A DNA stretch of 64,000 bases from Bacteriovoracia bacterium (GCA_050246755.1 JBFWVL010000002.1:320001-384000); one strand, 5' to 3'. Shown: positions 2,443 through 59,806, counted from the stretch's first letter. Notes: a model not told the origin generated them from the sequence alone. Made by a program: numbers and translations.

Positions 2443-2762
2443 CCGTGGCCGAGCTTCAGGCCGAGGGTGCCAAGAAGAATTAGGGCAATGCAAAGAAGGC
2501 GAAACCAGTTGCTTGGCTCACCGGCAAAGAAAATCCCGAAAAGCACGGTGCCCGCGGCGCCAATTCCGGTCCATATGGCGTAAGAAGTACCGATTGGCAG
2601 AACTCGCACGGCCTCGCTCAGGAGATAAAAGCTGACTACTAGGGGAACTAAAGTAATGATCGTGGGAACTAGCTTCGTGAACCCGGCGGTTCGCGGAAGT
2701 AAAACGGCCCACATAACTTCGAGGAGGCCGGCTAGTAAAAGGCATACCCAGGGTCGCGTCAT
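2439..2762 (-). CDS. sugE: SMR family transporter (SugE/Gdx type)
   Basis: 107 aa, 4 TM segments; W..L.LAGLLEV.WA and LPIGTSYAIWTGIGAAGT motifs. Confidence 0.85.
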   Translation of the reverse strand: MTRPWVCLLLAGLLEVMWAVLLPRTAGFTKLVPTIITLVPLVVSFYLLSEAVRVLPIGTSYAIWTGIGAAGTVLFGIFFAGEPSNWFRLLCIALILLGTLGLKLGHG

Positions 2763-2782
2763 TCCCGGAAATTAGCACAGAA

Positions 2783-11922: not shown

Positions 11923-13140
11923 TCACACACTTTCGAACGTGCGCTGGATAATTTGGCAACTCTCGCGTACCTGCACCTCGTTGATTACCAGCGGAGGCGC
12001 TAAGCGGATGATATGGTCATGCGTCGGCTTGGCGAGCAGGCCGTTTTCTTTTAATTTCAGGCAAAGATCCCAAGCCTTAACGGGCGCTTGAGGATCCACC
12101 ACCACCGCGTTCATCAGGCCGCGGCCACGGACTTCCTGCACCCAGGGCTGTTTCACTTTTTTCATCTCCGAGCGGAATAGCTCGCCCATGCGCGCCGAAT
12201 TTTCTGTGAGCTTCTCGTCTCGCAATACTTCGAGCGCCGCCATGGCCACGCGGCAGGCTAGGGGATTTCCGCCGTAGGTGGAGCCATGCTCTCCCGGCTT
12301 TAAGTTCATCATCACTTCGTCGTCGCAGAGAACGGCCGAAACGGGCAGCACTCCGCCCGAGAGCGCTTTCCCGAGGATCAGGATATCGGGGCGCACGTTT
12401 TCGTGGTCGCAGGCGAGCAGCTTTCCGGTGCGACCGAGCCCGGTTTGCACTTCGTCGGCGATAAAGAGAACGTTATATTTTTCGCAGATCGCCTTGGCCT
12501 GGCGAAGGTAGCCTGCCGAGGGAATTACCACGCCGGCTTCTCCTTGAATCGGTTCCAGCATGAAAGCGGCTACGTTTTTGTCTTTACAGGCTTGTTCGAG
12601 CGCCTCGAGGTCGTCGTAGTTGATCACTTCGAAGCCCGGCATATAGGGGCCAAAGCCGGCGTACGAGGATGGATCCGTGGACGAAGAAATCGCGGCGAGG
12701 GTTCTGCCCCAGAAATTTCCCTTCGCGAAGAGAATTTTTGCCTGCTTATCCGCGATGCCTTTTTTAACGTAGCCCCAGCGGCGGGCCAGCTTAATGGCAG
12801 TCTCTCCGCCTTCCACGCCGGTATTCATGGGCAAAACACGCTGGTAACCGAAATACGAGGTGATGAATTTCGCGTATTCTCCCAATACGTCATTATAAAA
12901 CGCGCGAGAAGTGAGCGTAATACGTTGGGCTTGTTCGGTGAGCGCCGCGAGGATTTTGGGATGGCAATGGCCTTGATTCACCGCGGAGTAGGCGGCTAAG
13001 AAATCGAAGTATTTTTTTCCTTCGGGATCCCAGACGAAAATTCCTTCGCCGCGGGAAAGAACCACGGGAATGGGATGGTAATTATGGGCGCCGAATTTAT
13101 CTTCGAGCGCGATGGCTTCTTGGCTGGAGACGGTTTTCAT
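11923..13140 (-). CDS. rocD: Ornithine--oxo-acid aminotransferase
   Basis: [39 protein letters not shown] and LGKALSGG motifs. Start placed at MKTVSS. Confidence 0.96.
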
Positions 13141-13216
13141 CCCGGCAGCATAGCCTAGACGCGTCGAGTCAGTCCACGTTCCCCATGACCTCCCATAACG
13201 GGAAGCGAGGATAAAT

Positions 13217-13510
13217 TTAGAGAATATCCGCCTCTTCGAATTCATCCAAAACAATGCGCGCGGGCGCTTTCTCATCGAAAAAGGCCATTACCTTATCCAG
13301 TACGGCTTTGCCCTGATCGTGGCCGCCGGCGCAAAGAGAAACCGCGAGGGTCCCTCGCTCGGGATTGGCCACCATGTGCTCTTCCACCACCACGCACGAC
13401 ACGTTGAATTCTTTGCGCACTTCTTTCGACAGGGAGCGAAGGGAGCGTGCCTTAAATTCTTCGTCTTCGTTGTTGAAGAACTCGAATACGATTTTGCCGT
13501 GGAATGCCAC
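13217..13510 (-). CDS. DUF503/YlxP-like small protein
   Basis: K.R.LRSL...VRKEFNVS pattern and ~97 aa length; start at GTG 13510 is inferred. Confidence 0.55.
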
Positions 13511-45522: not shown

Positions 45523-46122
45523 TCAGTATTTATGATTAAGGTTGCGCAACACTCCGGTGAGTATGCCCTCGATGCGTAATTGCACCGGGGGCATAATCAC
45601 CAGAGGAGCGTACTTCGGGTTGGCTGCATGAAGTTCTACTCGGTTCTTTTTGCGCTGTAAGCGCTTAAGAGTGGCCTGGCCTTCTACCGAGGCCACCACG
45701 ATCGTGCCGTCGTCGGCATGATCTTGTTTCCGAATCACGGCGTAATCGCCATCGAGAATTCCCGCTTCGATCATCGAATCCCCGGCCACCATCAGGCAGA
45801 AATGCTCGCGGTCGATTTGCACGAAGGAGGAGGGAACCTCCACGAACTCCTGGTGCAGGTGGTATTCGATCGGCTGCCCGGCGGCTACTTTTCCTAAAAG
45901 GGGTAAGTGAATCCCAGATTGCTTCACCGAAACACCACGCTTGGAGTTAGCGTCCATATCGAGGAAGCCAGCATCGCGAAGGCGCTCCACGTATTTCTGC
46001 GCCGTGGATCGGGAGCTGAGGTTGAAGGCATCAGCGATCTCCTGGTAGGAAGGCGAGTAGCCATTCTCCTGAATAAAACGCTGAAGGAACTCGAGAACGT
46101 TTTTCTGTTTGGGAGTGAGCAT
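45523..46122 (-). CDS. lexA: SOS repressor LexA
   Basis: MLTPKQ..VL.F, GYSPSYQEI, VAAG cleavage site, GDSM and TLKR catalytic motifs. Confidence 0.96.
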   Translation of the reverse strand: MLTPKQKNVLEFLQRFIQENGYSPSYQEIADAFNLSSRSTAQKYVERLRDAGFLDMDANSKRGVSVKQSGIHLPLLGKVAAGQPIEYHLHQEFVEVPSSFVQIDREHFCLMVAGDSMIEAGILDGDYAVIRKQDHADDGTIVVASVEGQATLKRLQRKKNRVELHAANPKYAPLVIMPPVQLRIEGILTGVLRNLNHKY

Positions 46123-46128
46123 AAAATA

Positions 46129-46179
46129 AAGGTAAGCGTACATTCGTCGTACGTCAAGCGGATAGTACATTTTTCGTGC
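46129..46179 (-). promoter_or_regulatory. lexA promoter with two candidate LexA boxes
   Basis: TTGACG-N17-TACCTT. GTAC-N7-GTAC at 46138-46152 and GTAC-N7-GTGC at 46165-46179. Confidence 0.7.
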
Positions 46180-46192
46180 AGCCGATTCCAGG

Positions 46193-47104
46193 TTAAGCGG
46201 CTAACCCATGAAGATAAAACGTTTTCTCAATGGAACGAAGCAGCAAAAGAAGCGATTCCGGGCTCGATTTTTGGGGACTGAGCCAATTTTTTAGCTGCTC
46301 CTGTTTCAAAAAAACTGGGCAGCGATCATGGCCGGCAGCGGCCACCTCGGCCGGCGGATTATCGGTCACCATGGCGAACGAGCTGATGGCCCCATCGTTT
46401 CCACTCGGAGAAACGGAAAAAAGACCGGCGGCCCACATCACCTCGCGATTTTCTGGCGCAAAATAGATTTCTTCTTTTTTGCCGTGCGCGGAAACCCACT
46501 CGTAGAAGCGCTGAAAAGGAAAAATCAGGTGATTCTTTCCGAAAAGGGGGCGCCAAGTTTTAGCGCTCAGGAGCGAATCGTGTCTGGCATTAAATACATT
46601 ATATTGACTAGGAATCTCGCTGCCGTCGGGATTTTGCACCCGAAAGCGCATGGGCCGTAAAAATCGCTTTCCGGCCTCCTCCACGATCACGGGGGCGAAG
46701 TAGGAGGGGAAGATACGATCGTCGAGCGGATCGATTCGATCGAAGGAGGCTCGAATCTTCCCGTCCAATTTCACGATGCGCCGCTGCAGCACGCCGATTT
46801 TCTTCGCGCCCGTGGCGCTAGGCTTTTTGCTCTCCAGCGCGCGCAGCTCGTGCACGGCGGCCCTCAGCGCAATCTCGTTGCGCGACTTCTCTTCGGCGTG
46901 AAAAGCCGAAATAAACGGCGATAGCCTGGCTTCCGCCGGATCCTGGCTCAGCAAAAAATAACGATCCAGCCCGAAGGGCACTCTTAGCTGCGGGCTAGAT
47001 AGGCGCTGGCGGAGAAGGCTTTCAAAACTGCTTAGGTCGGTTTGCGCCTGGAACTCTCCGGCTATTTCCTTAAGCGAAGTTTTAATGCGAGTTGAGTAGC
47101 ACAT
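46193..47104 (-). CDS. SOS response-associated peptidase (SRAP/HMCES family)
   Basis: N-terminal MCYS (catalytic Cys2); FNAR.D, FYEW and GHDRCPV motifs. Confidence 0.9.
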   Translation of the reverse strand: MCYSTRIKTSLKEIAGEFQAQTDLSSFESLLRQRLSSPQLRVPFGLDRYFLLSQDPAEARLSPFISAFHAEEKSRNEIALRAAVHELRALESKKPSATGAKKIGVLQRRIVKLDGKIRASFDRIDPLDDRIFPSYFAPVIVEEAGKRFLRPMRFRVQNPDGSEIPSQYNVFNARHDSLLSAKTWRPLFGKNHLIFPFQRFYEWVSAHGKKEEIYFAPENREVMWAAGLFSVSPSGNDGAISSFAMVTDNPPAEVAAAGHDRCPVFLKQEQLKNWLSPQKSSPESLLLLLRSIEKTFYLHGLAA

Positions 47105-47150
47105 GCCCGCGAGAGTAACGCCAATCCGTTTTTTCTGCTATCGTGTTCTG

Positions 47151-47783
47151 GTGGAAATAAAGCGCGATAATGTGATCACCCTGAACAACGCTAAGCTCTC
47201 GCGCTTCCTCGGCCGCGCCGCCGAGTTTCACCGCAACCGCGACTACCAAATTTCTCTGCGCGCCATCGCCGACGCGGGAAAATTGCTGGACGCCCAAAAT
47301 AGCGAAGCCCATAAATTTTTAATTTCCTGGGAAGAAGCCATCGAGCGGGAAAGTAGGGGATTGCCCCTTAGCGCCCCGCCCACCTCGTGGGGAAAAATCG
47401 CCAGGGAAATCGGGGCGTGCCTGGAGCGCAATGAAAACTTCGACGACTGCATTCTCCAGCAGACCCACCAGCCCAAGCGCATTCTTCTGCAAAGATATGG
47501 CTTCGGCCTCTTAGGCGCGCTTCTATTTGTCATTGGCTTTACCGCGCTGGCATTCGTTCTTCGGGGTGTTTTTTTCCGCTTCGACAATGGCTACCGCTTG
47601 GCCCAGTTGCCTTTTTTCCGGCAGGGAATCTGGCTTTACTTTCATGCCCTCGCCACCGCCATTTCGGGAGGGGCGCTGGCGGCGCTTGGATTTCGCTGGA
47701 TTCGTTTTGCCTGCCATAGCCGCGCCTCCCTAAAACCAAAGATGGAGCTGCGGCCCCTCGAATCAGACCAAAAAAGTTTTTAA
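47151..47783 (+). CDS. Hypothetical membrane protein
   Basis: Two C-terminal TM segments. Start is uncertain (the ORF-track start overlaps SRAP). Confidence 0.45.
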   Translation: MEIKRDNVITLNNAKLSRFLGRAAEFHRNRDYQISLRAIADAGKLLDAQNSEAHKFLISWEEAIERESRGLPLSAPPTSWGKIAREIGACLERNENFDDCILQQTHQPKRILLQRYGFGLLGALLFVIGFTALAFVLRGVFFRFDNGYRLAQLPFFRQGIWLYFHALATAISGGALAALGFRWIRFACHSRASLKPKMELRPLESDQKSF

Positions 47784-47845: not shown

Positions 47846-48271
47846 ATGAAGACCCTCCTCTATTTGTTCGTTTTCCTGGCGGGGACTGCCAGGGCCGAAC
47901 CGGAGCCGAATTTTCAGTTTTCGTACGTGCCCAACGAAGGCGCGGAAGGGGTAGCGTGCGCCCACGAAAGAATCCGCGATCTTCCCGACTGGCGCGTGGC
48001 CTGCCCATTTTTCGGGGAAGAAAAACGATTCACCGCCCACGTTCTGCTAAGAAACTTTCCGTCCCAGAAAAAAAGTGCGGTGGAGCTGCTATATTGGGTT
48101 ACCGAGGCCGCGGACGCACCGGGATCCTCCCCGAAATTTCACGCTACGAGCGCTCTGCTTAAGCTGAAGGGGGAAACCGCTCTGGATTCCCTCTCGCTGG
48201 CCCAGGGCGTGGAGAACGACTATGCCTCCCTCGTGCTCGACGCCTCACTGGAAGCCAAGGGAAAGAAATAG
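47846..48271 (+). CDS. Secreted hypothetical protein
   Basis: Signal peptide ending ARA, two Cys, beta-rich pattern. Confidence 0.6.
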   Translation: MKTLLYLFVFLAGTARAEPEPNFQFSYVPNEGAEGVACAHERIRDLPDWRVACPFFGEEKRFTAHVLLRNFPSQKKSAVELLYWVTEAADAPGSSPKFHATSALLKLKGETALDSLSLAQGVENDYASLVLDASLEAKGKK

Positions 48272-48295
48272 GCGCGCTTGGCCGATAAGGAAATC

Positions 48296-48988
48296 ATGAA
48301 CCTGCATAAAATAAAAACGCTTTTAACCCAGATTCTCTGCCTGCAGCTCGCTATCGGAATGGGCACCGGCTACGCGGCCCCCGTGGTGAGCACCCCGCAA
48401 GTTGCCATTGCCAAAAATGTAGATACCCGCGCCCTCGAAAATGCAAACCCGGAATACGTAAAAACTTTGAGCGAAATGCTAAAGGCCTTGGGGGCTAAAA
48501 AAGTAACTTGTACCTCGGGGTATCGCTCCCCCGACCAGCAGCGCCGGGCCTGCGTAAGAATTTGCGGAAACCCGAACGGATGCCCGAACCTCTGCGCACG
48601 TCCCGGAAGATCCCAGCACCAACAAACGACCATTGCCACTTGTGATCTAGTGGGACTCACGAACGGATGCCATGAGCTGAAGCGCCTGTGCGATGAAAAA
48701 TATAACGGAAAATGCGGAATTGGCGGCTACGCGGGCGGGGGTTATCACTTCGGCGTGAACGACACCCGTTTTTCCGCCTGGAACAAATGCGCCGGTCTTC
48801 CGAGAAATAAGAGCAACTATGGCCCTGATTTTCGCGCCCCGGCCGATCCAAGCCCCGGTTCCCTCACTGGTACCGAGCTGATCGCCGACGAAGCCTCCAA
48901 GAGCCACGAGATCATCATCATCGCGGCCATTGCCGCCCTCGGTGTAGGCGGAGCCTTGCTCTACCAAAAAATGAGGAATAAAAAGTGA
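48296..48988 (+). CDS. Module 1: Cys-rich M15/LAS-type zinc peptidase with C-terminal TM anchor
   Basis: Signal peptide; TSGYRS, ARPGRSQH...CD and GIGGY...YHF motifs; C-terminal IIIIAAIAALGVGGALLY followed by KMRNKK. Confidence 0.65.
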   Translation: MNLHKIKTLLTQILCLQLAIGMGTGYAAPVVSTPQVAIAKNVDTRALENANPEYVKTLSEMLKALGAKKVTCTSGYRSPDQQRRACVRICGNPNGCPNLCARPGRSQHQQTTIATCDLVGLTNGCHELKRLCDEKYNGKCGIGGYAGGGYHFGVNDTRFSAWNKCAGLPRNKSNYGPDFRAPADPSPGSLTGTELIADEASKSHEIIIIAAIAALGVGGALLYQKMRNKK

Positions 48989-49698
48989 AGTCCTTACCCA
49001 AATTCATCCCCTTCGCGGTTGGCGCTTTCTTGATTTCCAGCGGCGCCCAGGCGGCCGCGCCGTTTTGCCTGCCCTTTGCGGCGCTAAAAATAAATGCCAC
49101 GAATTGCGACGATAACTTCGCCCTCGGCAAGCAGGCGGACAATTGCCTTTCGCTTTTCACCACGGCGCTGAGCAATAACCGCGCGCAGATCGACAAAATC
49201 TTGAAAGCGGAGGCCGCCAAAGGCAGCTCCGGGCAAAATATCACCTATAAAACTACCGGATCCATTTTCGCCCAAACCCTTCAGGAGCTGGACCATCTAA
49301 TTGCCAGCGGAGAACAGGCCAAGTTTGCGGTAAAAACCTATTCGGATAACCTTTCGCTTCCCGAAGATTATGATCAGCCGGCTCTAACCGGAATGAGCAC
49401 CGAGAAATACCTTTCGGTAGAACCTTGCTACGCCACTCCCTTTCGCATGGTGAGCGAAGACAGCGCCGTGCTCAGCCTCATGGTGGAAGACCTCAAGAAG
49501 GCCAAGAGCGAAGTGCTCGCCAAGAGCGGACTGAACCAAGTCAACTTAGGGCAAGTGGAATCCAGCAGCGACACTAAGGTGCTGAAGGGCAAGCCCGTTG
49601 CCCCAACGGGACTTCCGAAAGAATCGGCGGTAAAAAATCGCGATTCCGACGTGACGGGTATTCTGGAAGATCAGAAGAAGCGCGAAGAGAAAAAATAG
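48985..49698 (+). CDS. Module 1 partner: secreted 4-Cys helical protein (NRDSDVTG family)
   Basis: Signal peptide; C-x12-C-x12-C, LPED, PCY and KNRDSDVTG. GTGA overlap with the peptidase gene. Confidence 0.75.
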   Translation: MKSLPKFIPFAVGAFLISSGAQAAAPFCLPFAALKINATNCDDNFALGKQADNCLSLFTTALSNNRAQIDKILKAEAAKGSSGQNITYKTTGSIFAQTLQELDHLIASGEQAKFAVKTYSDNLSLPEDYDQPALTGMSTEKYLSVEPCYATPFRMVSEDSAVLSLMVEDLKKAKSEVLAKSGLNQVNLGQVESSSDTKVLKGKPVAPTGLPKESAVKNRDSDVTGILEDQKKREEKK

Positions 49699-50469
49699 CT
49701 AACTGTTCTCCGCCGATTTCGTGGCCAACAAATTCGGAGCGCGCTCCGTGATCAGCTTTCCTAAATACGCCTGGACCGCCGCCATCATCCCAAACTGGTA
49801 AGGCGCCAGACAAACACTCAGGCCTATGGCCACGTATTCCAGCCCCGAGAAGCGGAAGCTCAGCATGCGCACGGGAAAGAGCAGGAGCAGGCTAGGTGCC
49901 GCCTGCAACAACAGCGCCAGCAAGCATCCTTTCCAGATGGCACGGAAGGCTTTCCAGGAGTCCCGGGTAGAGTGATGGGAATGCCCGCGGGCGGCCACCA
50001 GGGCCGTGGCGCCATGATAGAGAACGAACCATACCGGAATAAAAATCACCACTAATCCGCCCGTGATTGAGGCGAAACGAATGGGATTCGTGATGCTCGT
50101 CATATAATTCGTAAGCGCATAAGCAAAAGCGGGGATCAGGGTGAGGCAGGTGAGCGTGGCTACCTTGATCGACATCCAGGTCCAGGAGATGCCGAAATCC
50201 CAGAGTGAAGGCTGATGGCGGGCGAAGGAATTACGCAACTTATGCAAAACACTGAAAAGCAAAATCAGCGCGAGGGCGAAAAAGAAAAAACTCGCCAGGG
50301 TATACCCGAGAACCGCGAAAGATTCTTGGGAGGCCATTCCCGAATCGATGGCATTTTTTTTCGATTTGCTGAGTTCGCCGAATAATATCCCCACCGCCCA
50401 AAAGAATGTGCCGAGGTAGTAGGCGGTTTGTTTCATTTCCAAGCGCAAAAAATCTAGGATGGACTTCAT
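49699..50469 (-). CDS. Hypothetical multi-pass membrane protein
   Basis: About 6 hydrophobic segments. Confidence 0.6.
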   Translation of the reverse strand: MKSILDFLRLEMKQTAYYLGTFFWAVGILFGELSKSKKNAIDSGMASQESFAVLGYTLASFFFFALALILLFSVLHKLRNSFARHQPSLWDFGISWTWMSIKVATLTCLTLIPAFAYALTNYMTSITNPIRFASITGGLVVIFIPVWFVLYHGATALVAARGHSHHSTRDSWKAFRAIWKGCLLALLLQAAPSLLLLFPVRMLSFRFSGLEYVAIGLSVCLAPYQFGMMAAVQAYLGKLITERAPNLLATKSAENS

Positions 50470-50548
50470 TTCTTTCCCCAAGATGAAAAGGTTAGGGCGG
50501 GCGGTTCGCCTAAATTTTAGGCCGAAATAGCCGGGAAGGAAATCAATT

Positions 50549-53500
50549 TTAGAAAGAGTGAAAGTATTGAGTAGGCTCGATCACCAGGCGCGCTTGCTCG
50601 CGGTCTTTGCTCTCGGGCCATACGCTCTTCACGTCGGCCACCCATACGCTATAGGAATTGGTTTCTCGCTGGAGCTTGCCGGTCACCACGAGAAAGCAAT
50701 TATCCAAAAAAGCATCCTTTACTCTTTCCCAGATATCAGGGGCGATCGCGATATCCAGAAAGCCGAACTCGTCCTCGAGAGTGCCGAAGGTCATGCCTTT
50801 CGCGGTGGGCGGCTGCTGGCGCACCAGTAATAAACCCGAAAATTTCACCTGCGTCCCGGGGCGCTGGAGCTTGGCGGTCTGGGTATTCAGCTTGGGCAGG
50901 GGCAATATTTTCCGCAGCGCCATCATGGGATGCCCGTGCGTGGAGAGCGAAAATGCATCATATTCTTCGAGAATTTTTTCGTAATCGCCGAGGGCATGGA
51001 ATTTTGCCCCGCTTTCCTCCACATAACCGGAATCGAGGAATAAATCTCCCTGCACGCGGTCGCGGCGGCGCTGAAACTCGAGCACCTGCCAAAGCGCTTC
51101 GCGCGGAGGAAAGCCGAAGCATTCGAATGTCCCCCCCATGGCCAAACGCAGGAGCGCGTCTCGCCGCACAGGGGCGCGCTTAAGAAAATCCGCCAAGCCG
51201 GTAAAAGGGCGGAGGCTAAGGATTTTTTCGGCTTCCTCCCGGTGCATTCCCTTCACCATTTTCCAGCCTAAGCGCAGCGCACCGTTTTCGATGGTACTTT
51301 CCCAGGCGGAAGCATTCAAATGCACGGGCAATACCGTTACCCCCTGAAGCTTGGCGCTATCCACCAGGGTATGGGGAGAGTAAAATCCCATGGGCTGGGA
51401 GTTCAAAAGCCCGCAGGTGAATTCGGCGGGATGATGGCACTTTAAATAACAGGAAACATACGCCAAGAGCGCGAAGCTCGCCGCGTGGCTTTCCGGAAAA
51501 CCGTACTGCGCAAAGCCTTGGATCTGCTGAAAGATGCGGTCGCAAAACTCCTCCGATAAACCATTTTTTTTAAAGCCATCCTTTAAGCGCTGGCCCATCT
51601 TCGTGATCGATCCTTCGGAACGCCAGGCCGCGATGGCGCGCCGAAGCTCATCGGCTTCGCCGGGAGTAAAGCCACCGAGCTCTACCGCCATCTTCATCAC
51701 TTGTTCCTGGAAAAGCGGTACGCCGAGAGTTCGCCCCAAAATCGCGCGCAGGGCCGGGTGAGGGTAGTCTTCCTTTTCTTCTTTGCGGCGCCGGCGTAAA
51801 TAGGGGTGCACCATTTTTCCCACGATGGGTCCCGGCCTCACGATCGCCACCTGGATCACCAGATCGTAAAATTTCTCCGGCAACAGCCTGCCCAGCATCG
51901 ACATTTGCGCGCGGCTTTCAACCTGAAAGGTACCCACCGTATCGGCCATCTGGATCATCTTATAGGTTTTCGGGCATTCCTTGGGGAGCAAGTGCATTTC
52001 CGTTTTCACGAGCTTCAGGGTGCGCTGGATCGCGGTAAGCATCCCGAGCGAGAGCAAATCTACTTTTAGGAGGCCGAGAAAATCTAGGTCGTATTTATCC
52101 CACTGGATGATGGTACGGTTCTCCATCCTCGCCGGCTCGATGGGCACGATCTCGATCAAGGGATCGGCCGAAAGGGTGAACCCCCCGCTGTGGATCGAAA
52201 GATGGCGCGGGAAGCCCGCCATTTCCTCCGAAAGCGCTTCCAGTAATTTCCTGGGCTCCTTAGTTTCGGTGTTCTGGGCGCGCTCGTCGAAAAACTTATT
52301 GAGCTTCTTGGCCGAGAGCGTCCCCACGTCGATGCCGAGAGCTTTGGCCAGTTCCCGGAAAGCCGAACGCCGGCGGTAGGTGATCACCGCACTCACCATG
52401 CCGGCGCGATCGCGCCCGTAACGCTCGTAAACGTACTGCAAAACTTCTTCACGTCTTTCGTGCTCGAAATCCACGTCGATATCGGGTGGCTCGTTCCGTT
52501 CCTCCGAGATAAAGCGCTCAAACAGCAAATTCATGTGAACGGGATCGATCGCGGTGATGCCGAGACAATAGCAAACCACGCTATTGGCGGCAGCACCCCG
52601 GCCCTGGCAGAGAATGTCTTTGGAGCGCGCAAATGCCACGATATCGTTAATGGTGAGAAAATAATCGGGAAAGCCAAGTTTCTCGATCAGGCGAAGCTCA
52701 TGTTTCATCTGCGCGCTCACGGCATCTGGTATCCCATTGGGATATCGCTCTTGCGCTCCCTTCCGGGTGAGATGCTCGAGGTAGGACTGCGCCGTATGCG
52801 ATTGCGGAATCCATTCCGAGGGATAACGGTATTTCAACTCCGAAGGGCAAAAGGTGCATTGTCCGGCGATTTCAATCGTGGCCTCGACGGCTTCCGGCAG
52901 ATCCGAAAAAAGTGCCCGCATTTCGGCGCAGGACTTCAGCCTCCTTTCGCCGTTGGGGAAAAGCTTATGCCCTAATTTCTGCAAAGACGCATTCTCGCGC
53001 ACGGCGGTGAGCGCGTCCTGAAGGGGCTGCCGCGCGCTCTCGTGGTAGTGCACGTCGTTCGTGGCTACGATGGGCACGCTCCAGCGGTCGCGTATCCAGA
53101 TGGCTTTTTCGGTATTTTCTTTTTCGAATCCATCGCGTAACCGATGGAGGGTCACGTAGAGGCGGGAAAAGAGTGGGCGCAGCCGTAAAAAATCCGCCGT
53201 GAGCGGAGCCAAGGCGAATAAACCTTCCGCCGCCTCCGGAAATGCATTCAGCAGCGCGCGCAATTCTTCGAAACGCAGCGCGGCCTTTCCTTTCTCCTTT
53301 CCGGCATGGCTGGCGGTGAGGATACGGCAAAGCAAGCCATAAGCCTTACGGTCACGGGCGAGAAGAGTGAGCCGCGACGAATTTTCCAGGGAGAGGCTGG
53401 CTCCCGATATCAATTTTAGGTCGGGGTATTTCTTTTTTTCCCAGAATGCTTTCGGGATGCCGTACACGCCGTCGAAATCGTTCAGCGCAATGGCGGATAA

Positions 53501-53593
53501 GCCGAGCTCCGCCGCTTTAATGATCAGCTCCTCCGGAGAGGAAGCTCCGCGCAGAAAAGAAAAATTCGTCTTTACCTCGAGCTCGGCGTACAT
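50549..53593 (-). CDS. dnaE2: Error-prone DNA polymerase DnaE2/ImuC
   Basis: YAEL...NFSFLRGAS, PPDIDVDFEHERREEV, FPRHLSIHSGG, YGFPESHA and NSQPMGFY motifs. Start overlaps the imuB stop. Confidence 0.96.
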   Translation of the reverse strand: MYAELEVKTNFSFLRGASSPEELIIKAAELGLSAIALNDFDGVYGIPKAFWEKKKYPDLKLISGASLSLENSSRLTLLARDRKAYGLLCRILTASHAGKEKGKAALRFEELRALLNAFPEAAEGLFALAPLTADFLRLRPLFSRLYVTLHRLRDGFEKENTEKAIWIRDRWSVPIVATNDVHYHESARQPLQDALTAVRENASLQKLGHKLFPNGERRLKSCAEMRALFSDLPEAVEATIEIAGQCTFCPSELKYRYPSEWIPQSHTAQSYLEHLTRKGAQERYPNGIPDAVSAQMKHELRLIEKLGFPDYFLTINDIVAFARSKDILCQGRGAAANSVVCYCLGITAIDPVHMNLLFERFISEERNEPPDIDVDFEHERREEVLQYVYERYGRDRAGMVSAVITYRRRSAFRELAKALGIDVGTLSAKKLNKFFDERAQNTETKEPRKLLEALSEEMAGFPRHLSIHSGGFTLSADPLIEIVPIEPARMENRTIIQWDKYDLDFLGLLKVDLLSLGMLTAIQRTLKLVKTEMHLLPKECPKTYKMIQMADTVGTFQVESRAQMSMLGRLLPEKFYDLVIQVAIVRPGPIVGKMVHPYLRRRRKEEKEDYPHPALRAILGRTLGVPLFQEQVMKMAVELGGFTPGEADELRRAIAAWRSEGSITKMGQRLKDGFKKNGLSEEFCDRIFQQIQGFAQYGFPESHAASFALLAYVSCYLKCHHPAEFTCGLLNSQPMGFYSPHTLVDSAKLQGVTVLPVHLNASAWESTIENGALRLGWKMVKGMHREEAEKILSLRPFTGLADFLKRAPVRRDALLRLAMGGTFECFGFPPREALWQVLEFQRRRDRVQGDLFLDSGYVEESGAKFHALGDYEKILEEYDAFSLSTHGHPMMALRKILPLPKLNTQTAKLQRPGTQVKFSGLLLVRQQPPTAKGMTFGTLEDEFGFLDIAIAPDIWERVKDAFLDNCFLVVTGKLQRETNSYSVWVADVKSVWPESKDREQARLVIEPTQYFHSF

Positions 53594-54858
53594 CAGTCGA
53601 AAATCCCGTGCAAAAAAAGCTCGGTCTCGTTGAAATGGCGGAATACCCATAGCCGTTCTCCCGCCAAAGTATCCACACAAAAATACTCCCGGGAAAATCC
53701 CCCGAGCCACCATTCTCCGCGCAACTTCTCCGGCCCCTCAAAAGCCAGGATCCCCCAAGAACGATTCTGGCAACGCAAAAAATTTCCGTCGCGGCGGATC
53801 GGAAGGGGCTTAGCCAATAAGCGCAGAGGGCGTAACGGCACATGGGGCAAGAGCTCGCCTTTCCCGGGTTCCAGCGATTTTTTCCAGGCCGCTTCGGGTA
53901 ATAAACGAGGGGAGGGCGCCGCCAGAAAAGCCGCATTTTCACCCAGCCTTTCGCTCAGTCTGGCCACGAGCGAAGCCCAGGCTTCTTTTTCTTCTTCTAC
54001 TTTGGAAAAAAAGTCTCGCTGTGCATTGCGGAAGGGGGCCGTTTCGATAATTTCGATCGCAACCTCTTCCAGCGCATCTTCTAGCGGCCGGCTTTCCAGC
54101 TCCTTGGCGATTCTATCCTGCAAAAACTGCAGTACTCCTTTCGGATCCGATTGGGGCAAGGGCAGCCTCACTTCCAGCAGACGCTCGCGGGATCCGTTAC
54201 GCGCCAGGCGGTTGAGCCGAAAACGCAATCGAAATGCCATTAGCATCTCGGCCCTCGCGAAAAGGCGGATAAATACGCGGTCGATCAATCCTTTGAGAAT
54301 AAAGAAAATAGGCTCGAGATTTTCGATCTGGGCCGCGAAATCCAGCTCCGTTTTCTCTTCGATTTTTGCGGAAGGCACGAATCGGGGCCAGGCGATACGT
54401 TTAGCCTCGAACACCTTAGCGTATGCCCGCGCGCCCTCCTTGCCGAAACGTGCCGGGATTTCCTTAAGCGGTACGGCCAAAAATTCACCCAGAGTTTTTA
54501 TGCCAAGCTTGCGCAGGATGGCACCCGGGGAAAAATCGCTGGGCGTAAACGGAGAAAGATAATCGCGAAGAGCATCCACGGGCAGATTTTCCCGCGCGGT
54601 AATTCCGTAGCGCGCAAAGGCCAGCGAAGAAGGTAAATCACCGGCGCTGCTGATCGTGGCGGCGAGCTGGAAAGCGCCGAGGATTTCTTGCAGCCTCGCA
54701 AAACATTGCTCGAGAGAAAAAAGCCCTAGGGAACCAGAAACCTCCACGAAAACCGCTTCGTGGGATACGGCTACTTGCGGGCTAAACGCCAAGCAGGCCT
54801 CCGCCAAGGCCGGAAGCCGGGAAAAATTTTCGCGCAGCAGGAGGCAAACCACCACCAT
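53593..54858 (-). CDS. imuB: ImuB (inactive Y-family polymerase)
   Basis: FSP.V, LGIKTLG and RFG motifs, clamp-binding motif QRDFF, C-terminal GPE.L..EWW...REYF...LFLHGIFD. Confidence 0.9.
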   Translation of the reverse strand: MVVVCLLLRENFSRLPALAEACLAFSPQVAVSHEAVFVEVSGSLGLFSLEQCFARLQEILGAFQLAATISSAGDLPSSLAFARYGITARENLPVDALRDYLSPFTPSDFSPGAILRKLGIKTLGEFLAVPLKEIPARFGKEGARAYAKVFEAKRIAWPRFVPSAKIEEKTELDFAAQIENLEPIFFILKGLIDRVFIRLFARAEMLMAFRLRFRLNRLARNGSRERLLEVRLPLPQSDPKGVLQFLQDRIAKELESRPLEDALEEVAIEIIETAPFRNAQRDFFSKVEEEKEAWASLVARLSERLGENAAFLAAPSPRLLPEAAWKKSLEPGKGELLPHVPLRPLRLLAKPLPIRRDGNFLRCQNRSWGILAFEGPEKLRGEWWLGGFSREYFCVDTLAGERLWVFRHFNETELFLHGIFD

Positions 54859-54859
54859 T

Positions 54860-55366
54860 TCACTTTTGCCGCAGAACGAAGAGCTTCCGTTCGCGCACCT
54901 CCAGCGAAAGGGCGATCGGCCAGGCGGCGAGGGGTTTTTTTCGCGCCAAGAGAATTACGGTGGCCTCGGCCTTTTCGGCCAATAGCTGAAAGCGCCTCAA
55001 CTGCCGCTCGTCCTCGCGGTAGGGCGCGTGGAATACGAGGATCGGGAATAAGCGGCTGCGGAGGATGGTGGCCGCGGCCCACGCCGCATCCTTTCCAGCC
55101 TCAACAAAAAATGTGTTCTCGAGCTTTCTCTTTCTCTGAAAGAGGGCGGGCGGATAGAGGGAAAATTCACTCTCGATCCAGGCGGCCGGTACCTCGGAAT
55201 TCTCCGCGAGAAAATGCGCCACGTTCTCGGTTTTCCCCTGACCCGAAACTTCCACCAGCACGCCTTTCGGCAAGCCTCCCGCCAAAAGCGAGTAAGGATG
55301 GGTTTCGCTGCGGGAGAGTTTCTTGAGGGCGCCGATGCGCGCGCGCAGCTCTTGTAGAGCGGACAT
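54860..55366 (-). CDS. imuA: ImuA-like protein, copy 2
   Basis: GGLPKGVLVEVSGQGKT, YPPAL and LRRFQL.AEK motifs. First gene of the imuA-imuB-dnaE2 cassette; GGAG RBS before 55366. Confidence 0.8.
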   Translation of the reverse strand: MSALQELRARIGALKKLSRSETHPYSLLAGGLPKGVLVEVSGQGKTENVAHFLAENSEVPAAWIESEFSLYPPALFQRKRKLENTFFVEAGKDAAWAAATILRSRLFPILVFHAPYREDERQLRRFQLLAEKAEATVILLARKKPLAAWPIALSLEVRERKLFVLRQK

Positions 55367-55446
55367 CCAGTCTCCAGCGCCCAATGGGGGCGAATTAAGT
55401 GGGTGATAAGCAGAGGGATCCATTCGCAGCGATGAACCACCCCTTA

Positions 55447-55476
55447 AGCATAATAGTACATTTGTAGTACAGTCAA
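55447..55476 (-). promoter_or_regulatory. imuA-imuB-dnaE2 promoter with a candidate LexA box
   Basis: TTGACT-N18-TATGCT with GTAC-N7-GTAC (55456-55470) in the spacer. Confidence 0.7.
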
Positions 55477-55595
55477 GGGCATTCCATAGATGAGCTCAAT
55501 ATTTTCCTTACAATAAGGAAAGCAGGTATCTAAATCCGCGAAATATTTTAGACTATTCAGGAGAGCTCCCCCCGATAGAAAATTTTGGAGTATCG

Positions 55596-56084
55596 ATGAA
55601 ACTCACCCTAACTCTTTTGGTTCTTACCTATTTTTTGAGCCCCCATGCGGAAGCTGGCTGCATGCCTGGAACCGAAGGCGCCTGCGGCGATCAAAATATC
55701 TGCGTTTCTGATCAGCCCACCGCAAAAAGCGGCCGTGGCGATAATAATAAGTGCCTGCCGGCAAAAGTATGCGGCGCGCTCCGCATGATCGCCAAAGAGT
55801 TCGGGAAAGTAGAGATCGCTTCCGCCATGCGCGTAAATAACGCCCGTCGCGGTGGCGCAAAAAATTCTTGGCATAAAACCTGTAACGCCGCCGATTTCTT
55901 GGTACCCAACCACCAGAGCAAAGCCACCCAGCAAAAATTGGCTAAGCTCATGATGGGCATCAATGGGATAGGCAAGAACGTCTACTGCACCGGGCGCTCC
56001 CACGTGAGCATTTCGCCCCGGGAATATTTCTACAGCAGCTGCGTGGCCGGCGGAAAAAAGCGCGCAAAAAGAAAACACCGTTAA
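55596..56084 (+). CDS. Module 2: secreted Cys-rich M15/LAS-type zinc peptidase
   Basis: Signal peptide ending AEA; I.SAMR, GGAKNSWHKTCNAAD (H-x6-D) and GIG...Y....SHVS motifs; 8 Cys. Confidence 0.75.
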   Translation: MKLTLTLLVLTYFLSPHAEAGCMPGTEGACGDQNICVSDQPTAKSGRGDNNKCLPAKVCGALRMIAKEFGKVEIASAMRVNNARRGGAKNSWHKTCNAADFLVPNHQSKATQQKLAKLMMGINGIGKNVYCTGRSHVSISPREYFYSSCVAGGKKRAKRKHR

Positions 56085-56096
56085 GCAGGAGGAAAA

Positions 56097-56792
56097 ATGC
56101 ACTACCTATTCATGCTAGCCCTCTTATCCGGCACCCAAGCCCTCGCCGCTAAAGATTATTCCAAGCTGCCCAAAAGTTTTTGCGAGCCCGTGACCAGAAT
56201 CGCGTCCGCGGTGGAAGATTGCGAAGGCAACGATCTCTTCCTGCAAAAAGGCGAAGACTGCCTAGACCTACTGGATAAAGAATCCAAGACCGTGGCCGGC
56301 ATCCTACCCGCCGCCTTTTCGAAAGACCTCACCCAAAAGCAGGGAGCGAAATTCGACTCCTCCGGCAAGGACTATAAAGTAACCTCTCTTTCCCTCGCGT
56401 ACCTGATCGCCGTTACGAACACGGCGATAGCGGAAATCAAATCCTACCAAGAAAATTTAGTGCTGCCTCCAGACAGCGACGAGGAAGAAGTTACCGGAGG
56501 CAATGTGCAAGCCTACGCGATGAGCGTGGACTGCTACGGCGCGAATAAGGAAAATCTCGACAGCCTGCTCGAAGATTTCGATAAGCGCCTGAAGCAGCTT
56601 CAAGGCGCTAAGGCCATCGCCGACGCTCACGACTCCACCTCAGGCTCCCGCGAGCAAAAAGTGCAGATGAATTCCGGCACCGATATTATTCGGGGCCAGG
56701 GTAAAGCCGCCGTACTGCCCAAGGGTGGAATTCCGGAAAATCGAGATTCCGACGTTTCGGGAATCAAAGAGAGCAAAGAAAAGAAAAAATAA
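56097..56792 (+). CDS. Module 2 partner: secreted 4-Cys helical protein (NRDSDVSG family)
   Basis: AGGAGG RBS; signal peptide; C-x12-C-x12-C, LPPD, DCY and ENRDSDVSG. Confidence 0.75.
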   Translation: MHYLFMLALLSGTQALAAKDYSKLPKSFCEPVTRIASAVEDCEGNDLFLQKGEDCLDLLDKESKTVAGILPAAFSKDLTQKQGAKFDSSGKDYKVTSLSLAYLIAVTNTAIAEIKSYQENLVLPPDSDEEEVTGGNVQAYAMSVDCYGANKENLDSLLEDFDKRLKQLQGAKAIADAHDSTSGSREQKVQMNSGTDIIRGQGKAAVLPKGGIPENRDSDVSGIKESKEKKK

Positions 56793-56795
56793 AGA

Positions 56796-58343
56796 TCAGC
56801 CCTGAAGCGCTTTTAGGGTACGTAACACTATAGGCTCTTCCATCTTCAGCGTTTCCAGCTCGCCGAATAGTGCATAGCAAATATCTTCGTAGGAAAAGGA
56901 GTTTTCCCCGTTTTGCTCCAGCAGGGCCTGCACGTAGCGGATGGAGCGGTCGATGAGCTTATTATTGCTCGGCTTCACCCAGGTCATTAGATTCCCTTCA
57001 TAGCGCCCGAGCCGCGCCATCAGAAGGGAAGAGTGCGTATTCAACAAAAGCTTCAGGTAAATATGCTCAAAGAGCGGATGCAGCTTTTCTACGCTGAAAG
57101 AAGTTTCTCCCGCCGGGGAACGCCAAACCATATTTCCGCCTTCGCGGGTGATCGAAAATATTTCTTGCCGCTTGCCGTTCAGGCGCTTCACGCGCTGCTC
57201 GCGGGCATTGCGACTGAAATCATACCCACGCAGGCGCGGCCAGTTCGACACGGCGGCCAGCTCGTCCCATTCGAGAGGAATAGGCTCGCGCAGCAAGAGC
57301 TCTTTCCAGGCGCTCATTACGTCGGCGGCTTTCGGGAAACTCAAATAGGCCAATGCGGGGGCCGCGTCTTGGTCCAAAAGGTTCTCCACGGGCACGAGGC
57401 TAAAGGTGGGAGAACGCTCAGTGGTGTCGGTAAAGATCGTGATGCCGTAGCGATCGGTCTCATAGAGCGTATATCCGCCCGCCAAGTAGAGGGCCGCTTC
57501 CCATTCGATATACTTCTGCACCGAAGCTAAGGGAGCCTTACGATAAAAGTCCACGAAAGGCGCGAGGTCCAAAAGCTTTTTTGGATTTTTTGGATCGGCG
57601 AAAAGCGCCACACCCGCGGCCAGCATCAAAACCGTGCTCGCCTGCAAGCGCGTGCTCCCCGAGATCGCCATTGGCCCCGTGAGAATCGGAATCGTGCGCA
57701 GGGCGGGATTATTTAGGAAGCGGCGGCAACGCTCGAGCCGCTCCGCCAACAGCGCGGGCGGATTACAAAATAAAACGTAGTGGGGTGCGCGGGAAATGCG
57801 CGCGGCCTCTTCCACCGCCCCAATGACCGAGGGAGTTTCGCCGCCTTCCGTGGTGGCGATCATCAAATCGCCCTCGCTAAAACCCAGCTCCCTCACCTGG
57901 CGTGCGCCGAAATCCGGATGATCCTCAAAATTCTCGATCGAACGCACCAGGGCAATATCCCCGCCCGACATAAAGGAAACCAAGCGATCCGCATCTTTGC
58001 TTCCCTGGTGCACAAAGCGCCAGATCACCTCGAGGGAAAGCGATAGTCTTCCGGTGGCTCCGCAGCCATAAAAAAACACTCTTTTACCCTTCGCGAAAGT
58101 GGCGTGAATGGCCTCGGCCATTTTTTCGAGCTCGGCCCGTTTTTCGAGAATCTTTTCCATGGCTGCTAAATCCACGGCGCGGAAAATTTCCATGGCCTCG
58201 GGAAGATTGTCTTTCGCCAGGGAAGATAATTGCAGCGTGGCCGGGTGCTGGCTTTCGGTAGGCAGAGAACCCAAGCGAAACTGGGGAGCGATTTTCAGAA
58301 AATCGTCGGCTTTCTTTCGGGCTTCCGGGCTCACCTTAGGCAT
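56796..58343 (-). CDS. MurQ/GKRP-like SIS-domain protein (extended)
   Basis: TESQHP, GCGATGRL, ENFED, GSTRLQA and GNLM..V...N.KL.DR parallel MurQ motifs; 515 aa. Confidence 0.7.
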   Translation of the reverse strand: MPKVSPEARKKADDFLKIAPQFRLGSLPTESQHPATLQLSSLAKDNLPEAMEIFRAVDLAAMEKILEKRAELEKMAEAIHATFAKGKRVFFYGCGATGRLSLSLEVIWRFVHQGSKDADRLVSFMSGGDIALVRSIENFEDHPDFGARQVRELGFSEGDLMIATTEGGETPSVIGAVEEAARISRAPHYVLFCNPPALLAERLERCRRFLNNPALRTIPILTGPMAISGSTRLQASTVLMLAAGVALFADPKNPKKLLDLAPFVDFYRKAPLASVQKYIEWEAALYLAGGYTLYETDRYGITIFTDTTERSPTFSLVPVENLLDQDAAPALAYLSFPKAADVMSAWKELLLREPIPLEWDELAAVSNWPRLRGYDFSRNAREQRVKRLNGKRQEIFSITREGGNMVWRSPAGETSFSVEKLHPLFEHIYLKLLLNTHSSLLMARLGRYEGNLMTWVKPSNNKLIDRSIRYVQALLEQNGENSFSYEDICYALFGELETLKMEEPIVLRTLKALQG

Positions 58344-58630
58344 GACCTAAGTGTAAGCGATTTTTGGGCTCTTTGTTAGGCCTGGCCCGTGACGCCCCGC
58401 CGCCACCATAAAATTAAATAAATATTATTTTTAAGGCGCTATTTAGCTGGGGCGCCCACCCTCGGCGATTTTTTAAAGCGAAGAATTTGCCAATTAAATT
58501 AAGCACTTGCATACACGCCACCGGATCGGCATGCGCAAGTAAAATAGATTTTCAGTCGATAAAGCCACACGACGATAAATTTCCTGAAAAACCCTCGTCG
58601 AGATGCAAGAATATTAGTGAGGAATCCCCG

Positions 58631-59074
58631 ATGCCCAACTTCAAATCCTTTACGTTTCTCTTGTTTTCTTTTCTTCTCGTATGCCTAGTGGTTGAACAGG
58701 ATGCGTGGGCAAGAAGAAAAAGACGCGGGCACCGCTATTTAGGCCGGCAAGGCGTGGCCTGCGTGGAATTCGCAACTCCACCAAAATGCGATATTCCCGC
58801 CTCCCGGGTTAAACAGTCCAACGGAGAGTTTCGCCTAAATCAGCAGCTTTGCGGAATGGTAAAAGCCCATCTTCAAAAACAGCCCAGCTGCTTTTTTACG
58901 ATCGGCTATCGCAGCTGTAAAACCAATAGTGGTATCCGTGGAGCTGCACGTAGATCCCGCCACCTATGTGGTAAGGCCGCGGACGTAAGAAAAGGCACCT
59001 GCAGTCTCGGCCAAGTTCACACCAAAGGAAGCGCCGTACACCAGCACTTTTCACCCTTAGGGCCTTGCCAATAA
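58631..59074 (+). CDS. Module 3: secreted Cys-rich M15/LAS-type zinc peptidase
   Basis: GAGGA RBS; signal peptide ending AWA; IGYRS...N..IRGAARRSRHLCGKAAD (H-x6-D) and HQHF; 8 mature Cys. Confidence 0.75.
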   Translation: MPNFKSFTFLLFSFLLVCLVVEQDAWARRKRRGHRYLGRQGVACVEFATPPKCDIPASRVKQSNGEFRLNQQLCGMVKAHLQKQPSCFFTIGYRSCKTNSGIRGAARRSRHLCGKAADVRKGTCSLGQVHTKGSAVHQHFSPLGPCQ

Positions 59075-59104
59075 ATTATAAATATTTAAAAATAGGACCC
59101 CCGA

Positions 59105-59806
59105 ATGAACCATAAGCCACTCTTAACTGCCGTAGTCTTTTTCCTAGCCGCTCAAGCCCAAGCCGCAAATGTGCCTAAGTACCTCGGGGAAATCCCTTCT
59201 AGCTATTGCGCTCCAGTGAGTAAAATAGACACAAACATCAAAAGCTGCGACGACAATAAGCTCTTCGTGCGGGTGGCGCAGAAATGCTTTGACGACTTCA
59301 AAAGCCTTCGTAAATCTACTGCAAATGACCTTGCGGGCCGCTTCGCCAAGGGCGACCAAGATAAGCAGCGCAAAGACTTTGCCGACCATGCCGCGAATAA
59401 CCAGGAAGCAATCGCCGCCCACAAATACCTAATTAGCTTGGGCGAGCTGGCCGTGAGTGAACTCGACGGCTATTTTGACTATATGGAACATCCGGAAGAC
59501 GCTGAAAACGACGATGAGATTCTCTCTGAGCCATGTTTCATCGAAAATGCTACCGCCCTAGAAAACATAGTGAACGATTTTGAAGACGAAGTAGACACGA
59601 TGAAAGAGGCGAAAGAGATTGAAAAGGTACATAGCGCGATCTCCAGCCAAAATAAGCAGCAAATCGATGCTTCGAGCACCAATTTAAAAATCAAATCCAC
59701 CACTGGCAAAGGTAGCGGCACCATCAAAGCCGGTACCACGGGAAACCGCGAGTCCGACGTGAGCGGCGTGGAAGAATCCAAAAAAAAGAACGAGCAGAAA
59801 AAATAG
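59105..59806 (+). CDS. Module 3 partner: secreted 4-Cys helical protein (NRESDVSG family)
   Basis: Signal peptide ending AQA; C-x12-C-x12-C, HPED, PCF and GNRESDVSG. Confidence 0.75.
   Translation: MNHKPLLTAVVFFLAAQAQAANVPKYLGEIPSSYCAPVSKIDTNIKSCDDNKLFVRVAQKCFDDFKSLRKSTANDLAGRFAKGDQDKQRKDFADHAANNQEAIAAHKYLISLGELAVSELDGYFDYMEHPEDAENDDEILSEPCFIENATALENIVNDFEDEVDTMKEAKEIEKVHSAISSQNKQQIDASSTNLKIKSTTGKGSGTIKAGTTGNRESDVSGVEESKKKNEQKK

Follow-up and report, generated by a model that had tools for sequence, protein, structure and literature searches.

Modules of a secreted enzyme and a secreted partner

The 64-kb window analysed here (G000:C2:320001-384000) belongs to a genome assembly of a Bacteriovoracia bacterium (G000; 3.55 Mb in 10 contigs, 95.7% complete). 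It contains three two-gene modules, in each of which a gene for a secreted, Cys-rich protein resembling LAS/M15 peptidases (A1, A2 and A3) is followed by a gene for a secreted protein of a second family, which we call the partner (B1, B2 and B3; Table 1). Positions refer to the window, unless a locus or contig label is given. A check of the open reading frames (ORFs) of the window recovered all six genes on the + strand, with the order, coordinates and gaps that the first-pass annotation of this DNA had listed. Pairing is tight and on the same strand in 3/3 modules: A1 and B1 overlap by 4 nt, A2 and B2 are separated by 12 nt, and A3 and B3 by 30 nt. The ATG at 58631, taken as the start of A3, has the sequence GAGGAA just upstream.

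The module had been described as triplicated. This is correct for the window, but the genome as a whole contains four copies, the fourth being located on another contig. Its partner was detected with a profile of the partner family (E 2.3e-21), and is coupled to a secreted protein of a different kind, termed X1. In total, G000 encodes four partners, three LAS-type enzymes and one X1 protein, all of them paired, with no orphan on either side.

The LAS/M15-type enzymes

Judged by sequence, A1, A2 and A3 are divergent LAS/M15 zinc peptidases. When the three were aligned with 16 proteins encoded upstream at related loci (alignment A4, n=19), the residues R, S, H and D in the pattern R...SxHxxGxAxD were invariant in 19/19 sequences (R79, S91, H93 and D100 in A2 numbering). 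The distal His can be read from the segments GGGYHFG in A1, GRSHVS in A2 (H136) and SAVHQHF in A3, so that H93, D100 and H136 are the presumed zinc ligands of A2. A profile made from alignment A4 matched the solved structures 1lbu (E 1.8e-5, over the catalytic domain with its distal His) and 2vo9 (E 3.6e-5), as well as LdcB, VanXY and others, with M15 matches in the range from E 1.8e-5 to 7e-4. The earlier assignment of the upstream proteins to the M15 type is thus upheld. Comparison with the Pfam family Peptidase_M15_3 (cut-off 23.2 bits) agreed for A2 (32.5 bits) and A3 (25.6 bits), but A1 remained below the threshold (19.2 bits). A3 also scored 25.4 bits against the NCBIfam model of MepK, far under its cut-off of 185.

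A1-A3 share the R, SxHxxGxAxD and distal-H motif with the Zn D-Ala-D-Ala carboxypeptidase of Streptomyces albus (1lbu), the L-Ala-D-Glu peptidase Ply500 (2vo9), LdcB, VanXY and MepK, and may, like enzymes of this type, cleave peptidoglycan stem peptides. They differ from the known LAS/M15 enzymes in being far richer in Cys (8-10 residues), very basic and very divergent, and in always preceding a helical partner. Among the listed matches of the A4 profile, none of the solved M15 enzymes is described with a protein inhibitor.

The peptidases had been called highly divergent, and indeed A1-A3 are only 19-22% identical to each other, with the R / SxH / D / distal-H pattern in common. All three begin with a hydrophobic, signal-peptide-like segment. 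When the signal peptides are removed at assumed cut sites, recounting gives the 10, 8 and 8 Cys residues reported before for mature A1, A2 and A3, and isoelectric points (pI) of 9.2, 10.0 and 10.8. The signal peptides were also considered as lipoprotein signals, but this reading was dropped, since the -3 residue before the first Cys, inspected by eye without a predictor, is not of the lipobox type. At its C-terminus (48880-48988), A1 has about 20 hydrophobic residues and, after them, basic ones. This end is absent from its closest relative (L011), and its composition suggests a membrane anchor or sorting signal.

The partner family

B1, B2 and B3 form one family with fixed cysteines, as had been proposed. 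They have 29% mutual identity, four Cys residues each, all invariant, and a common C-terminal NR[DE]SDV[ST]G. Across the family, C29, C42, N45, C55, Q82, C146, S218 and G222 are invariant, and Y117 and P124 are nearly so. Enzymes and partners both carry Sec signals, and their charges are opposite: the effectors have pI values of 9.2-10.8 and the partners of 4.9-5.6 (5.6, 4.95 and 4.93 for B1, B2 and B3), which includes the charge bias noted earlier for copies 2 and 3.

A search of 1.84 billion proteins with the partner profile identified 550 cluster representatives at E<=0.001, of which 511 reached E<=1e-10. As the profile finds both these representatives and the fourth copy in G000, the similarity among the partners is not due to chance. 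The 150 representatives listed are mostly 218-278 aa long (range 152-320), and the database names of the relatives are "hypothetical protein" only. In agreement with the initial view that the partner is not a described family, no Pfam or NCBIfam family came near any cut-off, no ankyrin family was among the Pfam matches at E<=1, and the best match of the profile among Protein Data Bank (PDB) sequences had an E of 4.4.

An AlphaFold2 (AF2) model of B2, calculated from an alignment of 20 sequences, has a mean predicted local distance difference test score (pLDDT) of 78, with core blocks mostly at 86-98. It consists of three long helices (42-75, 84-119 and 145-193), followed by a disordered tail. 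According to this model, the partner would be a disulfide-stapled three-helix bundle. Fold comparisons returned generic helical bundles, with a best E of 0.085 in Foldseek and a best Z of 10.0 in the wide search with VIA, where about 13 is needed for helical bundles; Atlas gave no usable match.

Enzymes associated with the partner

The neighbours of 43 partner homologs in 8 genomes were tallied. A LAS-like gene is located upstream on the same strand in 20/43 cases (19 in alignment A4, and one, L116, assigned by eye). X1 is found upstream in 5/43 (by family alignment) and downstream in 2/43 (by common motifs seen by eye; both are included in alignment A6). Other genes upstream of the partner encode small Cys-rich proteins termed X2 (3/43, by eye), a protein with a GHSxG motif (2/43, by eye, with no Pfam match), an Amidase_2 protein (1/43; 28.7 bits, cut-off 26) and an SLT-like protein (1/43; 19.8 bits, under the cut-off of 21.3). 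Divergently oriented neighbours, all recognised by eye, are an SLT-like protein (1/43), a GDSH-motif protein (2/43) and a Cys-rich secreted protein (1/43). No recognisable enzyme was present in 3/43 cases, and 2/43 homologs lie at or near a contig end.

As an independent sample, metagenome contigs were scanned with the C-terminal motif of the partner as the sole pattern, which yielded 13 loci; two pairs among them look like duplicates. For the 11 of the 13 loci with upstream sequence, there were nine matches to the LAS profile, one X1 protein and one SLT-like protein (by eye). Taken together, the two sets of contexts indicate that linkage to a small secreted enzyme is the rule, and that this enzyme need not be of the M15 type. 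Partner homologs lie downstream of LAS-like genes at nearly half of the genomic and at most of the metagenomic loci, and most of the remainder adjoin Amidase_2, SLT-like, X1 or other small secreted proteins.

In a partner tree calculated without the columns of the loop discussed below, all seven X1 partners and 2/3 X2 partners fall into one clade (SH-aLRT 99). The enzyme class labels require 16 changes on this tree, compared with a mean of 21.2 after shuffling, and none of the 200 shuffles gave a number as low; most other branches are weak.

The X1 proteins have the conserved motifs T.Y.P..GG.NG and GD.Y..GSN.K.D. An X1 profile found nothing among PDB sequences (best E 0.8), and the AF2 model is poor (pLDDT 58). 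The Foldseek list for this model consists mostly of double-psi beta-barrel proteins (sugarwin, kiwellin, GH45, YuiC, expansin and MltA). As all of these have E>=0.023, a likeness to double-psi beta-barrels of the MltA/YuiC type is a hint only.

At locus L012 in genome G003, a gene for a secreted 368-aa protein (2164-3270, + strand; Beta-lactamase2, 22.6 bits, cut-off 22) starts 3 nt past the partner stop codon of a LAS-plus-partner module.

The predicted A2-B2 complex

Mature A2 (21-162) and B2 (19-231), each with its own alignment, were modelled as a complex in three runs and with three controls. The ipSAE score was 0.68, 0.70 and 0.68 in the three runs, compared with 0.02 for the best of the three controls. 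In a benchmark, the mark for this score was reached by 116/157 solved complexes, and by 2/215 mismatched pairs. Contacts agreed between the runs to at least 85%, and pLDDT values were at least 69 for the partner and 76-82 for A2. The model, which passes its controls, supports binding of A2 to B2. A complex prediction for the cognate pair had been suggested in the first-pass annotation; its outcome is favourable, and the partner is placed on the presumed zinc site.

On the A2 side, the interface comprises S91 and the presumed zinc ligands H93, D100 and H136, together with the basic tail (153-162). On the B2 side, it is formed by residues 39-46 (around C42), the loop V122-G134 (with P124, P125, D126, D128 and E129) and the helical region 143-160 (around C146). 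The contacts of highest confidence are those of the basic tail of A2 on the acidic helix of B2. Outside the tail, the contacts of lowest predicted error include those of D100 and H136 of A2 with P125 and D126 of B2.

The loop that approaches the zinc site is a hallmark of LAS-coupled partners. All such partners in the alignment have the loop P-[EDPT]-[DEG]-x-[DEA], mostly as PEDxD, whereas the same position differs in the partners of Amidase_2, X1, X2, GHSxG and GDSH enzymes. In the LAS-coupled partners (n=20), the 31 interface columns have an entropy of 2.09, compared with 2.47 for the other 134 columns, and 48 of 5000 random subsets of columns were as low. In the other partners (n=21), the interface entropy is not lower than elsewhere (2.61 versus 2.59). 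For P124, P125, D126 and D128, values range from 0 to 1.3 bits in LAS-coupled partners, and from 2.1 to 2.9 bits in the others. Conservation and interface are not fully independent here, since the model received these same alignments.

The C-terminal tail of the partner

The disordered tail of the partner ends in a conserved SD[IV][ST]G motif, which is kept across enzyme classes. A sequon for glycosylation or for a kinase was among the readings considered for this motif. In G000, this motif is found at the C-terminus of the four partners, and in two weak look-alikes elsewhere. Partners also occur in a long form of 383-418 aa (Table 1). Past the SD[IV][ST]G motif, these proteins have a disordered extension of about 150-190 residues, rich in Ser, Gly and Lys, which has a further conserved motif, LF.RV..RYR...LFR, at its end. 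Two of the long forms (L101 and L109) also share the internal sequence FRNPGIGS..DPSGRFS.RG.

Distribution

The partner is present in 7/61 related genomes, all of them from one family (f1), with at least 12 matches each in G003 and G004. In a phylum-wide sample of 401 genomes, in which at most 7 candidates were scored per genome, it was again found in seven, namely G000, 5/7 other members of f1 and a single genome from a different family. Of the 394 Bdellovibrionota genomes sampled outside f1, 393 gave no match. The partner family is thus nearly confined to a single Bdellovibrionota family, within which it is patchy, as the two other f1 genomes lack it. Two relatives bear the database labels "Bdellovibrionota bacterium" and "Oligoflexia bacterium". 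A pattern search of genome contigs, based on an alignment of three partner sequences, gave 54 pattern matches and no relative. No fused forms of 561-2000 aa were found, which is weak evidence against fusions.

Discussion

Bacteria that export wall-degrading enzymes must shield their own wall. We see an even chance that the modules serve this need, and that each encodes a secreted hydrolase together with a co-secreted active-site inhibitor that protects the producer, the modules together representing a polymorphic self-protection or immunity set. In such a system, a small, basic, disulfide-rich LAS/M15 enzyme would be exported by the Sec pathway and would cut peptidoglycan stem peptides. It would be co-translated with its acidic, likewise Sec-exported three-helix-bundle partner, which would bind it in a ratio of about 1:1 in the periplasm of the producer. 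The disulfide-stapled tip of the partner would present the conserved P-[ED]-D-x-[DE] loop, with the loop Asp capping the catalytic zinc (H93, D100 and H136 in A2), and the basic C-terminal tail of the enzyme would be held along the acidic third helix. The hydrolase would then be inactive on the wall of the producer until it leaves the periplasm or loses its partner. The first could happen by enzyme export, for which G000 (95.7% complete) offers four secretin genes and no detected TssC, and the second by removal of the partner through its tail. Reuse of the scaffold with other loops for other envelope hydrolases would make this a polymorphic hydrolase-plus-inhibitor set. The released enzymes might act on other bacteria; it is the phylum, and only the phylum, that suggests a predatory use by analogy.

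The first-pass annotation had proposed an effector with a cognate inhibitor, chaperone or delivery partner. Gene linkage and the controlled complex model favour a scheme of this kind, but not one that is specific for M15 enzymes.

Several observations weigh against an inhibitor that confers immunity. An immunity protein normally belongs with a single effector family, whereas here one partner superfamily adjoins several unrelated enzyme folds. Within the LAS pairs (n=18), effector and partner similarities show no overall correlation (Spearman 0.117, with 353/2000 permutations as high), and nearest neighbours are concordant in just 9/18 pairs. The tail of the partner and its SD[IV][ST]G motif lie outside the predicted interface, and since the motif is independent of the enzyme class, the tail should have a second role. 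The modelled interface itself may have been shaped by the conservation in the supplied alignments. On the enzyme side, the LAS assignment of A1-A3 was made from sequence and not from a fold comparison with solved structures, and A1-A3 lack an Asp two residues past the distal His that is present in many relatives. Finally, the hydrophobic segment and basic tail of A1 suggest an enzyme that is membrane-anchored rather than released.

A possible, though doubtful, alternative is that the partner serves as a dedicated chaperone in the periplasm, or as an adaptor for export. It would keep the Cys-rich basic enzyme folded and soluble, and hand it over to an outer-membrane export route through its C-terminal motif, with inhibition as a by-product. 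This would account for a scaffold and an SD[IV][ST]G motif that are identical in kind across enzyme classes, and for the near restriction of the C-terminal motif to the four partners in G000. It would also fit the best modelled contacts, which are those between the basic tail of the enzyme and the acidic helix of the partner, the Sec signals on both proteins, and the inventory of export genes in G000. However, the modelled interface covers all three presumed zinc ligands as well, and conservation of the loop that makes contact is specific to LAS-coupled partners, as expected of active-site recognition. Moreover, some effector classes have no basic tails, and the modules contain no genetically linked export component.

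The partner could also be a general-purpose safety catch, although we consider this unlikely. In that case, a rigid, disulfide-stapled helical bundle with an exchangeable loop would plug the active site of a zinc peptidase, amidase, glycan-cleaving enzyme or esterase, and the invariant motif on the disordered, lysine-rich tail would dock all complexes to a common station that controls release, which could be a gate for export, a protease that frees the enzyme or the wall of the producer. If true, an uncultured branch of predatory type would here deploy lytic enzymes by a new logic that needs no type VI system.

It is also unlikely that the enzymes are wall-remodelling hydrolases of the bacterium itself rather than weapons, with the partner as a regulatory or scaffolding subunit, similar to EnvC and NlpD in the control of amidases. 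The LAS/M15 enzymes MepK and LdcB are housekeeping wall enzymes, A1 may be membrane-anchored, and the modules sit amid ordinary chromosomal genes. Yet G003 and G004 contain at least 12 copies each, the paralogs are extremely divergent (19-29% identity), the type of the partnered enzyme is polymorphic, genomic contexts vary, and presence is patchy even within f1. Taken together, such features are more in keeping with conflict genes than with core morphogenesis. We regard it as very improbable that the modules encode a two-component toxin, in which the partner would be co-released and act on the target, for example by disturbing the outer membrane and so giving the hydrolase access to the wall: the partner is an elongated helical bundle with weak fold matches to YaxB (Z 8.8), IpaB (Z 8.4) and ClyA (Foldseek E 0.9), but such scores are too low to tell helical bundles apart, the protein looks soluble, is acidic and shows no hydrophobic hairpin, and in the model it covers the active site of the enzyme.

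For the favoured scheme of a hydrolase with a co-secreted inhibitor, the nearest functional analogue of the partner is Bd3460. To our knowledge, this is the only characterised self-protection protein of a Bdellovibrio-type bacterium. It is said to be periplasmic, and the adjacent genes bd3459 and bd3460 are reportedly co-transcribed, Bd3459 and Bd0816 reportedly being of the PBP4 type. According to the original report, Bd3460 is an ankyrin-repeat self-protection protein that binds and inhibits the DD-endopeptidases Bd3459 and Bd0816 of Bdellovibrio bacteriovorus, and the abstract presents the work as the first to examine self-protection mechanistically (Lambert et al. 2015, PMC4686830). Measured against that description, the modules are similar in having a Bdellovibrionota host, a secreted peptidoglycan peptidase and a putative protector that would bind and inhibit it. 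They differ in that a three-helix bundle is predicted for the partner, with no ankyrin match in Pfam, in that A1-A3 are LAS/M15 zinc enzymes by sequence, and in that the partner occurs in multiple copies and accompanies several classes of enzyme.

There are also parallels with the effector and protector pairs of type VI secretion (Tae/Tai, Tge/Tgi and Tle/Tli). In both cases, effector and protector genes are adjacent, the range of enzymes is similar (wall peptidases or amidases, glycan-cleaving and possibly lipase-like enzymes), and the protector is a periplasmic protein that blocks the active site, as is predicted for the partner. Unlike type VI effectors, the enzymes described here carry Sec signal peptides, and one protector superfamily serves many effector classes. 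As a search of the 95.7%-complete G000 genome for TssC (PF05943) gave no match, and as Sec signals are present, we disfavour membership of the modules in a type VI system.

The use of one protector scaffold across unrelated enzymes in polymorphic systems is reminiscent of the SUKH superfamily, which was reportedly described by Zhang, Iyer and Aravind in 2011 as one protector fold that accompanies many toxin domains of unrelated kinds. SUKH proteins have an alpha+beta fold, reside in the cytoplasm and act against nucleases and deaminases. In contrast, the partner is Sec-exported and helical in the model, and it was negative in the Pfam scan.

The partner represents an undescribed, abundant family, unrelated to Bd3460, whose members accompany a range of secreted hydrolases in a lineage that is uncultured. 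What is new is a putative protector family with an unusually broad set of partnered enzymes, and with a conserved tail for which inhibition does not account. The titles and abstract openings covered by a literature search contained no account of the partner family, nor of a protein inhibitor of M15 enzymes, and the terms "M15" and "immunity" had 0 occurrences in the consulted part of a comparative-genomics paper on Bdellovibrionota (PMC11656739). Should the partner prove inhibitory, LAS/M15 peptidases would have a protein inhibitor that acts in trans, built on a compact scaffold with specificity set by a loop. The enzymes themselves are, as far as their sequences tell, candidates for small, disulfide-stabilised muralytic proteins.

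Gene neighbourhood of the modules

The features of the window, the fourth module and the long partner forms are compiled in Table 1. Three ORFs beside module 1 have no counterparts at the other modules, and were therefore considered to lie outside the cassette. Between and beside the modules, the - strand carries an SOS-type gene set (45523-47104 and 50549-55423), with two ORFs in the positions where imuB and imuA would be expected. The 172-nt spacer that separates the DnaE2-like operon from A2 contains the direct repeat TAGTAC-N5-TAGTAC.

Table 1. Positions of the enzyme-partner modules, neighbouring genes and long partner forms
Feature	Position	Strand	Remarks
A1, secreted Cys-rich LAS/M15-like peptidase, 230 aa	48296..48988	+	longest ORF starts at 48278
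B1, secreted partner, 237 aa	48985..49698	+	loop PEDYD, C-terminal SDVTGI
A2, secreted Cys-rich LAS/M15-like peptidase, 162 aa	55596..56084	+	basic C-terminal tail; Pfam match
B2, secreted partner, 231 aa	56097..56792	+	AF2 model; loop P124-P125-D126-S127-D128
A3, secreted Cys-rich LAS/M15-like peptidase, 147 aa	58631..59074	+	longest ORF starts at 58487
B3, secreted partner, 233 aa	59105..59806	+	loop PEDAE, C-terminal SDVSGV
Fourth module, partner and 225-aa secreted X1 protein	G000:C1:700121-701487 (= L004 1483-2849)	-	found by partner-profile search
LexA	45523-46170	-	SOS-type set
SRAP-family protein	46193-47104	-	SOS-type set
ORF beside module 1	47103-47783
ORF beside module 1	47846-48271
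ORF beside module 1	49699-50481
DnaE2-like polymerase, 1054 aa	50549-53713	-	SOS-type set
Two ORFs without Pfam family	53593-54858, 54860-55423	-	at expected place of imuB and imuA
515-aa protein with glucokinase-regulator-type SIS domain	56796-58343	-	PF22645, 41 bits; between modules 2 and 3
Class-III aminotransferase	11923-13275	-
Long partner form	L101 2421-3674
Long partner form	L115 617-1873
Long partner form	L109 2039-3223
Long partner form	L112 280-1452
Long partner form	L118 2494-3645

MurNAc-6-phosphate etherases are relatives of the SIS domain found in the 515-aa protein between modules 2 and 3, and by analogy a link of this protein to wall recycling is possible. No RNA runs were listed among the sequencing runs that match the window, and the matching DNA runs are labelled as landfill metagenome. 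Further away in the window, the listed relatives of the class-III aminotransferase (57-74% identity) are mostly of the Bacteroidota type, with some from other phyla. Such relatives are odd for a Bdellovibrionota genome, and may point to gene transfer.

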